Of a stretch of DNA of 52,130 nt, positions 1,138 to 29,236 are shown in pieces. The DNA comes from Candidatus Curtissbacteria bacterium. Lineage in GTDB: Bacteria > Patescibacteriota > Microgenomatia > Curtissbacterales > GWA2-41-24. The stretch spans positions 1-52,130 of the forward strand of contig JACPKK010000001.1 in NCBI GenBank assembly GCA_016187105.1, in the 5' to 3' direction. The notes beneath the pieces are model-generated. The model was not told the DNA's origin and did not search any database. It worked only from the letters and a program-made list of their open reading frames with translations. How positions within the stretch are numbered: the stretch's first letter is position 1; each line of letters opens with the position of its first letter. Made by a program: the position numbers and the translations under genes.

Positions 1138-2544
1138 TCACCTAGCCAAAAATTGTTCCCATGACTGCGTACTGGCTCTGCCGTACTGACCCCTATGTTC
1201 CGAAGACAGCATATTATTTACAAAATTTAGCTCTTGCTGGGGAGTAACCGGCTGCCGGAATATGAGACGCAAAAGTCTTCTTCTGCCATCATAATTTAGA
1301 CTTTGGGCCATCCATTTATGCATCGCAAATCCGATTCCGTAAGCATAAAGGTACGCTCGGAAAATTGGGTCTTCTGTCCTGTCTTTAATTTGTTTTGCTA
1401 TCTCTTCATCTGTTTCGGCAGGACAATAATGTCGAATATACTCCCTGACCTCTTCTTCGGGTATTGTTTCACCGTCACTAATCCGCTTGTGGATATTGTT
1501 ATAAACCATTTGCCTTAGCCCTTCAGCTTCAAGCTCAAATTTTGCCCCTTCTGTAAGTTTTTCTGATATACCGTCAACAAATAAATGGAGTGTTTGGGCT
1601 ATGCCTTCTGCTGTTATCTGTTCAGGGTCAAAAACTGTAGTTACTCCAAGAATCGGGATTAATCTCGGATTGTTTAACCAGCCAAACATTTGGCCGAAAT
1701 GGGCGGCAATTTCGTGCGGTACCATGGATTCAATTTTACTTATCGTCAGTCTTTGTGCATGTCTTGCGTGGGTGTTTACTCTAAGGCGAAACCTTTCTCT
1801 ATTGCCGTCTGCCCAGTTTATCCAGTATTCGTCTCTATTGTCGGTTTCCGCAACAAAATTCGGAGTAAAATCCCGACCAATAATCCTCGACAATTCTCCA
1901 AGTAAGTCTTGCCCAGACGTCTGCATTAATCCAGGAATTTCTGCAGGGTCTATCAGCTGGGATCTTCGAAAAGCCTCTATAGATTCACGGTCATAACTAC
2001 TCCATCCCAATAAAGCAAACGTTTCTCTCACGTCCTGCAATTGCCCTTCTAATCTTCTTTCCCCAATTAAGACCGGTTCTATGCCCATAAGCTCTCGTAT
2101 GTAATCTGTAGGGGATATTTCTAAGGTATTTGCAAAATTTACACCATAAAATGTTTCAAAAGCTCTTAATTTTGCCTTAAGGAAGTCAATCTGCATCTGT
2201 AAACCTTCATCGTCGGAGGGCGGAAGTGCTTCTACGGTATGTCTATATGATTGCAGTTGATCGATTATTCTTACTGCTCTCTCCTGTGTAATAGGGCTAT
2301 AGATGGCGGTAATTGCTTTACTTGTTCCGTCGTCAAATAATGGTGACGCGAGATCAAAATCTATAATGCCGCCATCTTCCTCTCCAACTATTTTGCTGGA
2401 TGCATGAACGACGCGGAAAAGAGCAACAATATTGGGAGAAGTTACTTCCCTAAGATTTTCTGCCTCTTCTCTAGATAGACCCTGTCCACCATTTAGTACT
2501 GGTCCACCATTTAGTACTGGTTCACCATTTGGTCTCTCTACCAT
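1138..2544 (-). CDS. Putative gluzincin-type metalloprotein (HExxxH), family not recognised
   Basis: 468-aa ORF. It has HEIAAH followed about 35 aa later by AEGIAQ, a possible third zinc-ligand helix. The N-terminus carries an 18-nt tandem repeat (PVLNGG). It sits between two M49-like paralogs. Confidence 0.45.
   Translation of the reverse strand: MVERPNGEPVLNGGPVLNGGQGLSREEAENLREVTSPNIVALFRVVHASSKIVGEEDGGIIDFDLASPLFDDGTSKAITAIYSPITQERAVRIIDQLQSYRHTVEALPPSDDEGLQMQIDFLKAKLRAFETFYGVNFANTLEISPTDYIRELMGIEPVLIGERRLEGQLQDVRETFALLGWSSYDRESIEAFRRSQLIDPAEIPGLMQTSGQDLLGELSRIIGRDFTPNFVAETDNRDEYWINWADGNRERFRLRVNTHARHAQRLTISKIESMVPHEIAAHFGQMFGWLNNPRLIPILGVTTVFDPEQITAEGIAQTLHLFVDGISEKLTEGAKFELEAEGLRQMVYNNIHKRISDGETIPEEEVREYIRHYCPAETDEEIAKQIKDRTEDPIFRAYLYAYGIGFAMHKWMAQSLNYDGRRRLLRLIFRQPVTPQQELNFVNNMLSSEHRGQYGRASTQSWEQFLAR
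2485..2538. repeat. 18-nt tandem repeat (2 perfect copies plus 1 degenerate copy) in the 5' end of ORF 1138..2544
   Basis: TCCACCATTTAGTACTGG occurs twice, followed by TTCACCATTTGGTCTCTC. The repeat encodes (E)PVLNGGPVLNGG. Confidence 0.8.
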
Positions 2545-2578
2545 GTTTTATATTTAAATAGAGGCAAATTATAGCGCT

Positions 2579-3940
2579 TTAGATGAGGTTCTTCAAGTTT
2601 GGTCTGAAGCGTTCGAAGATTTCCAGGGAACCATATTTTTCGACGACGTGCTTGGCTTCGTTATAGCTTCCCATGGAAATTAATGTCTCAAGAGAATCTG
2701 ATAATTCTTCAAGCGCTAGGAACATTTTATTGAAGTTTGGCCATGAAAATCCGCCAGATTCAATGATTGCCCCATTTTCTAAAAAGAAGTTAATGGCAAT
2801 AGCAAAACCTTGAGCATAATGAACGACGCCAGGTTCTTTGAGGTAGGAAATCCACCAGGAAAAAGCCCTGGCGACAAACGTGACCATTATGGCCTCGAGC
2901 TCTTTTTGGCTGATAACATCTTTTAACAGCAACGACCCACATGCTTTGACTCCAAAAACCGAAGCTGCTATTTCGTCAAAGACTGGGAAGTATTCTTTAA
3001 GTCTGTCTTCTGCGTCCCTATATCTTAGAAGCGGATGGCTGATCTCGTGGAGATATGAATTTCGAAGTGAACCCAGCCTTAAAATTTCAGCGGGGTAGCC
3101 TTGCTGAAACTTCTCTTCAAAAATAGCGTGGAAGATGGGACGATGTTCTGTGTCGAATTTTTTATTGAACGACTCTTTAAAAATGGTTATTTCAGAACCG
3201 TATCTTTCCATCAGCTTGACGTCATTTGGAAGGTTGGAGCTTGTGAACATGAAGTGGGCGATTAAGCCGGAGAAAATTAGAGTATTATCTACCCTAACCT
3301 GAATTTTATTTAAAAAGTCTACTTTCTCGGAGGGGGTTAAAGTTCTTCTCCTTGCACTGACAATAAAATCTTTAAAACGCACAGCATCTTCAGTTTGTTT
3401 TTCATCCATAATTCCGACCCAGGCCTGGTAGGAACATTTGGTAAAAAATAGTTGGTCATTGTATCTTTCAATTGGGCCAATTGCGATATCAATTTTGTAA
3501 GGCTTCATGGTGAGCCAGTAAATGTCGCTAACCTCGTACGTACCATCAAGAAGGGCATTTGCTTGAGTGTGGAGCCTTTTGGCAAAATCCCTATTTTGGG
3601 TAAGATCTGCCGCTTCTTTTAAGAGGTGCGCAACTTTCTCCAGCTGGGTTTTGTATTTTACGTGGTATGGAATAGCTATTAGCTTCCCATCTTTTGACCT
3701 TTCTACTACCGTATATGGAGAAAGGATACTGCGGTCATTTTTGTCGGCGGCGGCGATTTCATCACGTGTTGCATCGTGCGGGTAGAAATTTGCGCCTGAA
3801 TGGGCGACATTTTCCTGCTTTTGGTAAATTGGTGCGATAGCTTTTGCCGCTTCAATTAACTTTTTAACGACTTTTTTTTCAGAAGCAGTTAGCCCATGGT
3901 CGGCCTTTGATTTAAAAATGACAATTGAACCGTTTTTCAT
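2579..3940 (-). CDS. Zinc metallopeptidase-like protein (HExxH; DPP-III/M49-like by motif)
   Basis: 453 aa. Motifs: GANFYPHDATRDEI near the N-terminus, then LHEISHPLLRYRDAEDRL plus downstream FDEIAAS. Its start overlaps the greA stop as ATGA (3937..3940). Confidence 0.5.
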   Translation of the reverse strand: MKNGSIVIFKSKADHGLTASEKKVVKKLIEAAKAIAPIYQKQENVAHSGANFYPHDATRDEIAAADKNDRSILSPYTVVERSKDGKLIAIPYHVKYKTQLEKVAHLLKEAADLTQNRDFAKRLHTQANALLDGTYEVSDIYWLTMKPYKIDIAIGPIERYNDQLFFTKCSYQAWVGIMDEKQTEDAVRFKDFIVSARRRTLTPSEKVDFLNKIQVRVDNTLIFSGLIAHFMFTSSNLPNDVKLMERYGSEITIFKESFNKKFDTEHRPIFHAIFEEKFQQGYPAEILRLGSLRNSYLHEISHPLLRYRDAEDRLKEYFPVFDEIAASVFGVKACGSLLLKDVISQKELEAIMVTFVARAFSWWISYLKEPGVVHYAQGFAIAINFFLENGAIIESGGFSWPNFNKMFLALEELSDSLETLISMGSYNEAKHVVEKYGSLEIFERFRPNLKNLI

Positions 3941-26911: not shown

Positions 26912-27979
26912 TTACTTGATAAGGGGCGCTACCTTTTCGAAAAGCTTTTCGGCGGCAAGCTGGTGGACGTATTCATTGGGGTGAAAATCAAATTTACTGG
27001 CGATTAAATCCCGGCTCTTTTGATTTTTTAGATCATCAAGTAAATCAATAACTTCTGCCCCCCCGCTTTTAAAAACCTCGGCCATCAGCTGGTGAGCGCC
27101 GGCGGCTGGATAGTCAGGCAATAGATTGACAAAGGGAAAGATAATAACTACAACTTTTTCCCTATCGCTTTTTAGATCGTTTAAAAATGCGGTTATTATT
27201 TTTTCATGCCTTTGGAGAGTTTGCTCTTCCTGATATCTATCCAAATCCGCAGTCCCTAACTGCTGGAATGTTTTCTCGTATCTTGCCGAAAGTTTCCAAT
27301 AAAGATAATCAAAAAAGTATGAATAATTGGAGAAAAAGCTTATAACTTTTGCGGTCTGGCTGGCGCGAGCAATTATGGGGGCGCCAGTTGTGGTGTCTTC
27401 CGGCTGAATGTCGTTTAAAAAATACTCCCAGACAATAATGTCGCACTTGAGGAATTCTGTCTCTTTATAAACTCTGATTTCTGCCTCGGTATCGTAACCG
27501 GACCTGCCAAGATTATAAACTTCGACACTACGACCTGAATCGCGAAGTTTCTTCTGGAGAAGATTTGAGAACCTATCTTCAACTCTTTTTATACCGCCGC
27601 CAAAGGTTATAGAGTCGCCGAGCGCGCAAATTCTGGCAGTACCATCTTTTTTATTCTCAAAATTCCTATCTCTCATGAAATCGCTGTTGAAGACAACGTG
27701 CCTTGCATGCCACCTTTGGTTAACTTTCAAAAACCCCAAGCCGTCCGACTCATCGTATTGATAACGAAAATAAGCTTCAAAGGCGCAAAGGGCCAGAATC
27801 AAAGAAAAAACTGTAAACAATAAGGAAATAAGCAGTTTTTTCCGATTTTGAGAAAGCCCAGATTTATAAATTTTATAAGAACTAAACGGCAAGACGATCA
27901 AGGAAAGGATGATGAGAAGCAGGTAAAAAGCAAAGTCCGTTAAAAAGTATGAGAGACGGGCCCAAGCGGTAAAAAGCAT
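26912..27979 (-). CDS. Membrane-anchored SGNH/GDSL-family hydrolase
   Basis: 355 aa with 2 N-terminal TM segments. ICALGDSITFGGG is GDS block I. Confidence 0.6.
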   Translation of the reverse strand: MLFTAWARLSYFLTDFAFYLLLIILSLIVLPFSSYKIYKSGLSQNRKKLLISLLFTVFSLILALCAFEAYFRYQYDESDGLGFLKVNQRWHARHVVFNSDFMRDRNFENKKDGTARICALGDSITFGGGIKRVEDRFSNLLQKKLRDSGRSVEVYNLGRSGYDTEAEIRVYKETEFLKCDIIVWEYFLNDIQPEDTTTGAPIIARASQTAKVISFFSNYSYFFDYLYWKLSARYEKTFQQLGTADLDRYQEEQTLQRHEKIITAFLNDLKSDREKVVVIIFPFVNLLPDYPAAGAHQLMAEVFKSGGAEVIDLLDDLKNQKSRDLIASKFDFHPNEYVHQLAAEKLFEKVAPLIK

Positions 27980-28025
27980 TGTCTTATTCTTAGAAAGCTT
28001 TAGCTTTCGCAGAACGGCTTAGGCT

Positions 28026-28054
28026 ATTCTATTTTTTAACTGGGGGTTTGGCAA
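28026..28054 (-). promoter_or_regulatory. Putative promoter (TTGCCA-N17-TAGAAT) for ORF 26912..27979
   Basis: The minus strand reads tctcTTGCCAaacccccagttaaaaaaTAGAAT. Confidence 0.4.
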
Positions 28055-28131
28055 GAGATAAGACCTTGAGTTTAAAATTTGCTCGAGATGAAATATTTTA
28101 CTCATTTGAAGCTAAATTATTGTTGTCGGTA

Positions 28132-28137
28132 TATAAT
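28132..28137 (+). promoter_or_regulatory. -10 box TATAAT 6 nt before the MTHFS ATG (leaderless candidate)
   Basis: The sequence reads ggTATATAATtgctttATG, with no SD. Confidence 0.4.
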
Positions 28138-28143
28138 TGCTTT

Positions 28144-28758
28144 ATGGAAATTTCTAAAAGTGAGTTAAGAAAAAGCTTAATTGCAAAAAGATCTGGTCTT
28201 TCCACAAAAAGTGTTGAAGAAAAAAGTAGACAGATTGCAAAAAAGATGATGGAAAGCGATCTTTTTTTAAAAACAAAAATTGTTTCGGCATATTTACCAA
28301 TCCGCGGCGAGGTCAGCACAAAACCAATTATTAATTTTTTAATAGAGGCAGGTGTCGAGGTCTATCTGCCAAAATCTTTTGGCGAGGAATATAAGCTGGT
28401 GAGGTTTAAATCGTGGAATGATCTGGAAAAAGGACCTTATGGAATTTTAGAACCTCTTTCTCCTAGTCATCCTGAATTTAGTTCAGGATCTAAAAAGATG
28501 CTGAAACAAGTTCAGCATGACAAAGTGGATATAGATTTAGCATTTATTCCTGGCGTGGCTTTTGATAAAAATGGCGTAAGACTTGGATACGGCAAAGGAG
28601 TTTTTGACAGGCTTTTTGCAAAAAGCGAAGCGACTTTGGTGGGGCTGGCTTATGAATTTCAGATTGTTGACGAGCTTCCCCGAGAAGAACATGATTTGGT
28701 AATGGATTATGTTGTAACCCCATCCTCTGTCATCCTGAGCGGAGCGAAGGATCTATAA
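28144..28758 (+). CDS. 5-formyltetrahydrofolate cyclo-ligase (MTHFS), with an internal and a C-terminal repeat-derived segment
   Basis: LRKSLIAKR..., YLPIRGEV, GPYGILEP, DLAFIPGVAFDKNGVRLGYGKGVFDR. The start was trimmed to ATG 28144. Confidence 0.8.
   Translation: MEISKSELRKSLIAKRSGLSTKSVEEKSRQIAKKMMESDLFLKTKIVSAYLPIRGEVSTKPIINFLIEAGVEVYLPKSFGEEYKLVRFKSWNDLEKGPYGILEPLSPSHPEFSSGSKKMLKQVQHDKVDIDLAFIPGVAFDKNGVRLGYGKGVFDRLFAKSEATLVGLAYEFQIVDELPREEHDLVMDYVVTPSSVILSGAKDL
28466..28521. repeat. Twin-hairpin element inserted in frame in MTHFS
   Basis: Two 8-bp stems: ATCCTGAA-N5-TTCAGGAT (28469..28489) and ATGCTGAA-N5-TTCAGCAT (28498..28518). Together they encode SHPEFSSGSKKMLKQVQHD. Confidence 0.7.
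28729..28753. repeat. Type E-like module GTCATCCTGAGCGGAGCGAAGGATC forming the MTHFS C-terminus (VILSGAKDL)
   Basis: Related to 37090..37127 and 38926..38957. Confidence 0.65.
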
Positions 28759-28761
28759 CCT

Positions 28762-28835
28762 GATTCTGGGCGAGCCCTTCGATTACACTCTGGGCAGTTG
28801 AAGGGCAGTGAGTTATATCGAACTGCCAGAATGAC
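28762..28835 (+). repeat. 74-nt TIR repeat, type A, copy 2
   Basis: See 5436..5509. It lies in the convergent spacer between MTHFS and PCD. Confidence 0.85.
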
Positions 28836-28876
28836 AGTTTAATCGAGGAGTTTGTCAATTTTAGCAGCCACGATAG

Positions 28877-29236
28877 TTACTTCGCTTCGCTCCGTTCCTG
28901 TTCTTGCTGCAATTTATTTATTTTCGCAGCAAGAATGAAATCATTTGTCGAGAGGCCGCCGATGGCGTGGGTAGAAAGTTCGACCTTTACCCTACCCCAA
29001 CCTAATTTGATATCCGGATGATGACCTTCTTCTTCGGCGATCTCCCCTATTTTATTAACAAATGCCAGCGCTTCTTTAAAATCTTTAAATTTAAACTCGC
29101 GGCTAATTGTGTCTGCCCCGTTTTGATTTACGACCTTCCAATCTTTGACCTCTTCAAGATAAGGCTCGATCTCACCTGTGGCCATTGGCTTGGTGCCGCC
29201 TTCGCAGGGAACACATTTTTGATGAGCGAGATTCAT
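28877..29236 (-). CDS. Pterin-4a-carbinolamine dehydratase
   Basis: 119 aa. Motifs: FKDFKEALAFVNKIGEIAEEEGHHPDI and V.ELSTHAIGGLS.NDFILAAKI. Confidence 0.85.
   Translation of the reverse strand: MNLAHQKCVPCEGGTKPMATGEIEPYLEEVKDWKVVNQNGADTISREFKFKDFKEALAFVNKIGEIAEEEGHHPDIKLGWGRVKVELSTHAIGGLSTNDFILAAKINKLQQEQERSEAK

Follow-up and report, generated by a model that had tools for sequence, protein, structure and literature searches.

The MTHFS gene (5-formyltetrahydrofolate cyclo-ligase) of a Candidatus Curtissbacteria bacterium carries two perfect hairpins within its reading frame, which raises the question of what this DNA is, how it came to lie in a housekeeping gene and whether it matters to the enzyme. 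The gene was analysed within a stretch of 52,130 nucleotides (the window), within the genome to which the window belongs (G000, 88.7% complete), and against a sister genome of the same genus (G001) and other genomes of the taxonomic family. A reading made from the sequence alone had described twin perfect 8-bp hairpins, inserted in frame as palindromic repeat DNA, as well as a repeat-encoded C-terminus and a 74-nt repeat behind the gene; the family of the repeat, its dimeric nature and its nuclease partner had not been identified there.

The MTHFS gene and its internal hairpin pair

28144-28758, plus strand: gene for MTHFS, 204 amino acids, intact as judged from PF01812, 1SOU, the alignment and the AF2 model
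28466-28490, plus strand: unit 1 of the internal dimer; GTC tag, stem 28469-28476/28482-28489, loop TTTAG, then C; fits GTCATNCYGAAN5TTCRGNATC
28491-28496, no strand: spacer TAAAAA between units 1 and 2, from reading of the sequence
28497-28521, minus strand: unit 2 of the internal dimer, inverted; reads GTCATGCTGAACTTGTTTCAGCATC on the minus strand, stem 28498-28505/28511-28518
28466-28521, no strand: whole internal element, GTCAT...ATGAC, a 56-nt two-fold-symmetric heterodimer with the tags outside (HH), supported by contig divergence, depth and low pLDDT

The MTHFS protein matched PF01812 over residues 5-193 in a domain search (E 3.8e-39), and a PDB search gave 1SOU from Aquifex (E 3.6e-28). 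All invariant columns (23/23) of an alignment with 28 homologues were retained, and the gene therefore looks functional at the level of sequence. The same alignment placed ~15 additional residues between GILEP and IDLAFIPGVAF, which is where the sequence-only reading had located the segment. No insert was present at this loop in 25 of the 28 homologues, which bears out an insertion in frame into an intact gene; P0011, P0017 and P0019 had inserts of different sequence. In the MTHFS reading frame the hairpins code for part of SHPEFSSGSKKMLKQVQHD, and 28466-28521 as a whole is translated as (S)HPEFSSGSKKMLKQVQHD (residues ~108-126). The AF2 model (mean pLDDT 88.5, pTM 0.84) was of high confidence throughout except for residues ~105-130 and the final four, with a pLDDT of ~50 for the insert segment. 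The insert would be a disordered surface loop of ~19 residues without a function of its own.

Hairpin 1, ATCCTGAA-TTTAG-TTCAGGAT (28469-28489), and hairpin 2, ATGCTGAA-ACAAG-TTCAGCAT (28498-28518), each have a perfect 8-bp stem and a 5-nt loop. A pattern covering both gave 2 matches in the window against 0.13 expected, and none of 100 shuffles reached 2; the twin hairpins are confirmed. The full segment reads GTC-ATCCTGAA-TTTAG-TTCAGGAT-C, TAAAAA, G-ATGCTGAA-ACAAG-TTCAGCAT-GAC, and hairpins 1 and 2 are a single inverted dimer with the termini GTCAT and ATGAC. The two hairpins are 76% alike and lie 29 nt apart; the stems of units 1 and 2 differ at one pair, a compensatory change of C:G to G:C. 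The start-to-start offset of the dimer was 31 nt, within the 27-50 nt observed for dimers of the sister genome. Folding as single-stranded DNA yielded almost the same energy for one long imperfect hairpin (−14.1 kcal/mol) and for two local hairpins (−13.4 kcal/mol), and the RNA of the segment folded as one long hairpin (−25.7 kcal/mol).

In four groundwater metagenome runs, contigs of other organisms diverged from the MTHFS sequence exactly at 28466 and at 28521/28523, and the borders of the element were thereby fixed independently. The depth over 28477-28534 was 1,200-3,300 compared to 10-30 in the flanks (~100x) in these metagenomes, and no MTHFS allele with an empty site was seen in their assembled contigs.

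The repeat at the 3' end of the gene

28729-28753, plus strand: left unit of the 3' dimer ("type E"), GTCATCCTGAGCGGAGCGAAGGATC; supplies the final residues VILSGAKDL
28762-28835, minus strand: right unit of the 3' dimer ("type A"); 74 nt, GTC tag, 7-bp basal stem ATTCTGG/CCAGAAT, long structured core
28836-28880, plus strand: ancestral C-terminal codons of MTHFS that were displaced and are no longer translated, SLIEEFVNFSSHDSY...

The last residues of MTHFS are indeed repeat-encoded, with the VILSGAKDL codons supplied by the type-E unit, and the 74-nt repeat behind the gene was found in 7 genome copies of 95-97% identity. A plus-oriented GTCAT unit precedes type A in 6 of the 7 copies. The stop codon of MTHFS (TAA, 28756-28758) falls in the spacer between the two units, TATAACCT, and the whole of 28729-28835 forms a further dimer, built like the internal one. 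When these 107 nt (exactly GTCAT...ATGAC) are removed, VVTPSS joins SLIEEFVNFSSHDS (SLIEEFVNFSSHDSY...) in frame; homologues of MTHFS end in VVTEERILDFVNLSSKNEIING. The deletion restores the ancestral tail, and the 3' dimer was therefore inserted cleanly, without target duplication, which makes it a clean example of the border of such an element. The 3' dimer cut ~17 codons off MTHFS and gave the gene a new tail of 9 residues and a stop codon; repeat insertions can also replace gene ends. The sequence-only reading had counted three hits in the gene. The repeats are all present, but the hairpins are one dimer and types E and A are a second, and the gene was thus hit by a pair of dimers, with four units in total, and not three times over.

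The neighbourhood of MTHFS showed some features of its own. The gene for a pterin-4a-carbinolamine dehydratase (PF01329, E 4.2e-33) adjoins MTHFS at 28877-29236 on the minus strand, with 28877-28900 and 28901-28935 as the regions of note. Its last codons (..EQERSEAK) have a GGAGCGAAGCGAAG-like sequence that resembles the type-E loop, and a perfect 10-bp inverted repeat lies just within its 3' end; the tail of this gene may, from its sequence, also be repeat-derived. Upstream of MTHFS a GDSL-type lipase gene is present (26912-27979, minus strand), as it is in a distant relative (L029:400-1470), and the gene order is therefore conserved.

A dispersed GTC-tagged family and its in-frame copies

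The unit of the family can be written as GTC-ATNCYGAA-N5-TTCRGNAT-C, dispersed and, in dimers, inverted. A census of perfect hairpins over the whole of G000 revealed a second pair (contig C55, 440-500, followed by an additional half unit that extends to 522), which sits in frame in a gene for a TatD-family hydrolase (PF01026, E 1.2e-69). Three pairs differ between the TatD and MTHFS stems, each on both sides. The peptide of unit 2 is KMLKQVQHD in MTHFS and RSRNKFGMT in TatD, where another frame is used; the DNA hairpin is therefore conserved and not the peptide. Across copies, together with the compensatory changes in the stems, this is the outcome that the sequence-only reading had proposed to look for, namely hairpins kept in the DNA and not in the protein. 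The insert is missing from the TatD orthologue of the sister genome. A second copy of the first 54 TatD codons, 96% identical, lies at a contig end of G000 (C3:3-161, minus strand) and probably reflects strain variation or an assembly that broke at a repeat.

The pattern GTCATNCYGAANNNNNTTCRGNATC was found in 19 of the 32 genomes of the taxonomic family, with 69 units in G001, 27 in G017 and 18 in G042; a reversed-pattern control gave 0 matches in any of the 32. Stem pair 6:22 was Watson-Crick in 91 of 93 distinct units (C:G 57, T:A 23, G:C 11), where 47% would be expected if the two positions were independent, and pair 8:20 in all 93 (60% expected). The base before GTC was T or C in 86/94 units (T 63, C 23); of the two MTHFS units, the first has A and the second T at this position. 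Behind the palindrome, the family has C-T-R-G as its consensus. In 376 kb of sampled G001 DNA, 16 convergent and 0 divergent dimers were present, and the partners of a dimer shared a stem in none of the 16 (27% expected). For G000, 26 GTCAT-tagged hairpin units were counted versus 3 in a reversed-sequence control, most of them of a TCTGG dialect. All four strict units of G000 are inside genes, compared to ~15% in the sampled G001 DNA. The dialect of the MTHFS units also occurs in Sphingomonadaceae, Pedobacter, Treponema, Gastranaerophilales and several CPR groups. Overall, copies of the family are scattered through Curtissbacteria and numerous other phyla, and the stems are kept by compensatory changes. 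A permissive Rfam scan of 28000-29000 gave chance-level matches only.

Nine of the 62 sampled units of G001 lie inside six verified housekeeping genes, encoding an IscS-like aminotransferase, LepA, TsaE-Sua5, MetRS, phosphoglucomutase (PGM) and RecG, and the orthologues in G000 are without these inserts. Wherever genomes were compared (MTHFS, TatD and the G001 genes), a palindromic repeat in frame in a housekeeping gene was thus missing in the orthologue. Forward units were read as xH(P/S)E(L/F)xS(G/E)S in 9 of 10 cases, with TGA in one of the other two frames. For annotators this means that odd peptides in CPR enzymes such as xHPEFxSGS, RSRNKFGMT and VILSGAKDL are translated repeat DNA and not functional motifs. 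G000 has in-frame inserts of its own that are absent in G001, namely GLPASQDGRRGGQ in LepA (C34:4815-6650), SALRQAQGKRAPEV in MetRS (C3:1236-2711) and several in RecG (C45:4012-6258); judged from these sequences, each genome has its own set of repeat insertions. TatD proteins of other genera (L128 = G017:C4:87548-88564, L126 and L127) have in-frame inserts at different positions, no more than three each; one of them, SHPEFISGTKKK, is near-identical to the MTHFS peptide.

How the reading frame was kept was assessed from the lengths of the inserts. The 56 nt of the internal element of MTHFS are not divisible by 3, and the net gain over the orthologues is ~45 nt; exact removal of the 56 nt shifts the frame, and a simple clean insertion therefore fails to explain the intact frame. 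The same mismatch was observed in four other in-frame copies. The net gains were +78 to +81 for TatD (83-nt element), +48 for the IscS-like gene (52-nt) and +60 for LepA (59-nt), the differences from the respective element lengths being −5 to +1 nt in these other in-frame copies. These lengths gave no simple rule for the borders of the in-frame copies. The in-frame copies reflect either imprecise insertions or small indels afterwards.

The loop of MTHFS was then compared over a wider set of homologues. Among 106 with recognisable anchors, 78 had a loop of length 16 and 10 carried inserts of 7-21 residues. The DNA of the insert was read at four loci:

This MTHFS gene: GTC-tagged dimer, 28466-28521
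L028: CAAACCCGGTTTG twice, inverted
L029: 13-bp inverted repeat CACTCCCGATGTG / CACATCGGGAGTG
G022: degenerate type-E-like unit

The other inserts, like that of this gene, are palindromic, and all four are of different families. No related MTHFS was found with a loop of the same length and sequence encoded by DNA that lacks palindromes. The loop is, on these sequences, a recurrent insertion site for at least four unrelated repeat families, which encode unrelated peptides. Since families with different likely mechanisms converge on it, tolerance is a simpler explanation than targeting. One small loop, hit independently by at least four repeat families, therefore provides a natural map of the insertion tolerance of MTHFS.

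Proposed mobility of the dimers and comparison with known systems

A candidate partner gene was found in the sister genome. Between inverted units, G001 has two copies of a 338-nt block with a 98-aa GIY-YIG gene (PF01541, E 3.7e-15), whose start codon lies inside GTCAT (ATGAC on the gene strand) and whose stop codon and last residues lie inside the flanking unit. GTCAT-tagged hairpins are present within ~110 nt in 12 of 16 close homologues of this gene from other genomes, each with its own stem dialect, and one of the flanking units is GTCATTCCCGCGAAGGCGGGAATC, the Neisseria NTS core. A PDB search with the 98-aa protein gave no relative at E < 0.01, and an NCBIfam search only a weak match below threshold. 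A close homologue was not found in G000 (88.7% complete), where a GIY-YIG search returned a distant small gene beside a tRNA and a UvrC-like match. The former, the sole small GIY-YIG gene of G000 (C32:3100-3800), adjoins the tRNA gene, and two copies of another hairpin repeat, CCACGTTCA-TGTAAAC-TGAACGTGG, lie in front of it.

Very probably, the twin hairpins of MTHFS are one HH heterodimer of a GTC-tagged repeat, of the CGTC-REP/dRS3/NTS/Ssn-related-motif kind, that was inserted in the gene. The dimers would spread as single-stranded DNA hairpins, and an Ssn-type nuclease would make one cut immediately beyond each GTC tag, the two cuts being on opposite strands. Insertions would land anywhere; to survive, an insertion would have to leave the reading frame intact, be read in a frame free of stops and lie at a gene end or in a loop that tolerates it. 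The MTHFS copy itself is probably an inert relic, because no cognate nuclease gene was found in the assembled part of G000. It is conceivable, though we consider it rather doubtful as a whole, that the minimal mobile form of the Ssn-associated repeats is the tags-outside dimer and not the single hairpin. Ssn would then cut outside the GTC tags and the GTCAT...ATGAC block would move without target duplication, as is suggested by the clean 107-nt insertion at the 3' end of MTHFS; partners that never share a stem would leave the local hairpins competitive with the long hairpin; and CPR genomes would continuously gain and lose short disordered loops in essential enzymes, each with its own set.

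Template switching can create perfect inverted repeats, and the two hairpins are similar (76%) and close together, so a local origin by template switching or in-gene duplication, rather than from a mobile repeat, has to be considered. However, near-identical dimers are present in TatD of the same genome, the sister genome has 69 units and the controls none, units are found across many phyla, and in the same groundwater samples they are present on many contigs besides this one. A local origin is extremely improbable, and we judge it to be already refuted by the dispersed copies. Classical REPs or REPINs mobilised by a RAYT (a Y1/HUH tyrosine transposase) are also very unlikely. Y1_Tnp (RAYT-like) genes do occur in 26 of the 32 family genomes (1-9 per genome) and are flanked by short palindromes, which the L028 loop insert, with CAAACCCGGTTTG twice and inverted, resembles. 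Yet none of the ~33 Y1 genes inspected (including L060-L072 and L090-L109) was flanked by GTCAT units; most had their own short palindrome on one or both sides, for example CAAGGCCAGGCCTTG or CACACCTGGTGTG. The GTCAT units flank GIY-YIG genes instead, and no transposase was found beside CGTC-tagged REPs (Di Nocera 2013, PMC3733652). At one of the Y1 loci (L070:7060-7728, G001:C7:481059-481727) the Y1 palindrome GGGTCSGACCC is found three times in frame inside the transposase gene (KIGSDP, DTGSDP, KIGSDP).

In principle, the hairpins could be kept by selection, either for what they do in the mRNA or for what they encode. A role as RNase site or stabiliser, or as a translation pause that helps the two halves of MTHFS to fold, would agree with the perfect stems and with the strong folding of the RNA into the long hairpin described above, and REPs serve as RNA elements in some bacteria (PMC3733652). 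This explanation is nevertheless very unlikely, given that the insert is missing in 25 of the 28 aligned homologues, that the same element occurs in unrelated genes and intergenic DNA in both orientations, and that SsnA does not bind RNA (PMC11893778). A new function of the MTHFS protein, for example as an interaction loop, would fit with the intact gene, with an insert that is fixed in four samples from two studies and with the 10 of 106 homologues that carry some insert at the loop. We consider it very unlikely, as these inserts derive from no fewer than four repeat families that are unrelated and encode unrelated peptides, the segment has a pLDDT of ~50 and TatD uses a different reading frame for the same DNA. 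The insertion of a GTC-tagged dimer is thus preferred as the explanation of the locus.

The closest described repeats are the CGTC-tagged REPs of Di Nocera, De Gregorio and Rocco (2013), families CGTC-1 to -4, which have stems of 8-9 bp, loops of 4-5 nt and a 3-nt tail with the consensus CCA (PMC3733652). The Curtissbacteria units share with them the unpaired GTC tag at one end, which lies at 28466-28468 in unit 1 and at 28521-28519 on the minus strand in unit 2, and the 8-bp stems and 5-nt loops in MTHFS fit the published lengths. HH dimers (tags outside), both homo- and heterodimers, predominate among the CGTC REPs, and more than half of the intragenic ones are dimers or groups that encode 20-30 residues (PMC3733652). 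Likewise, the Curtissbacteria units are dispersed in multiple copies, mostly as HH dimers including heterodimers with different stems, and are in part intragenic and encode residues; in both cases there is no adjacent transposase. The base before GTC is C in the CGTC REPs, whereas T prevails here and unit 1 has A; the AT-rich stem (ATCCTGAA) is a further difference from the CGTC REPs. The tails are CTA (unit 1) and CTT (unit 2) versus CCA, with the first C kept and C-T-R as family consensus. The phyla of the CGTC survey did not include CPR, to which the present host belongs. The CGTC REPs include dRS3 of Neisseria, and CGTC-1 and CGTC-4 correspond to RPE-6 and RPE-4 of Rickettsia conorii, respectively (PMC3733652); a kinship of the present units to RPE-4/6 would follow from this literature equivalence.

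The longer form of the Neisseria NTS, CGTCATTCCCGCGMAVGCGGGAATCYRG, is bound as single-stranded DNA by SsnA, a 94-aa GIY-YIG nuclease that cuts a few nucleotides upstream of it (Chenal et al. 2025, PMC11893778). The nucleases of this system are placed in CDD family cd10448. The NTS and the Curtissbacteria units have the GTCAT...ATC frame in common, and the C-T-R-G consensus fits CYRG. Cutting depends on the three conserved nucleotides in front of the NTS palindrome, and binding on the C behind it (PMC11893778); GTC and the trailing C are present in both MTHFS units. The ssn genes are typically bracketed by SRM-type motifs (PMC11893778), and an arrangement like that of NTS-ssnA-NTS, with inverted units around a nuclease gene of ~95-98 aa, is found twice in G001, while none was found in G000. 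The published SRM pattern, HGTCWYN(0-2)YYVSBRHN(0-5)WNVSBRGN(0-2)RNCYNB, matches an NTS-like unit in L141 but neither of the MTHFS units, with 3 matches in the whole of G000. The pattern misses AT-rich stems, and a survey that uses it would therefore miss this dialect. The intragenic share also differs, being 2% for the NTS of N. meningitidis (PMC11893778) versus 4/4 for the strict units of G000 and ~15% for the sampled part of G001.

Rickettsia palindromic elements are, as summarised in PMC10969869 (after Ogata et al. 2000), in-frame palindromic repeats in unrelated housekeeping genes that encode fold-compatible surface peptides. The Curtissbacteria dimers are similarly palindromic and in frame in housekeeping genes, and the MTHFS dimer is 56 nt compared to ~150 bp for the classical RPE-1 in that summary. 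REPINs and BIMEs (Pseudomonas, E. coli) are also inverted doublets of hairpins that fold singly or as one long hairpin, and their cognate enzyme gene is likewise bracketed by repeats. Their tag is GTAG versus GTC here, however, and the bracketed gene encodes a Y1 transposase versus a GIY-YIG nuclease here; the RAYTs in genomes of the Curtissbacteria family have palindromes other than the GTCAT units. Overall, this kind of element has already been described, and the known picture is unchanged in kind; the family of GTC-tagged REPs and Ssn-related motifs is extended to Curtissbacteria, and the new details are the host clade, an AT-rich dialect missed by the published search pattern and the hot-spot loop in MTHFS.
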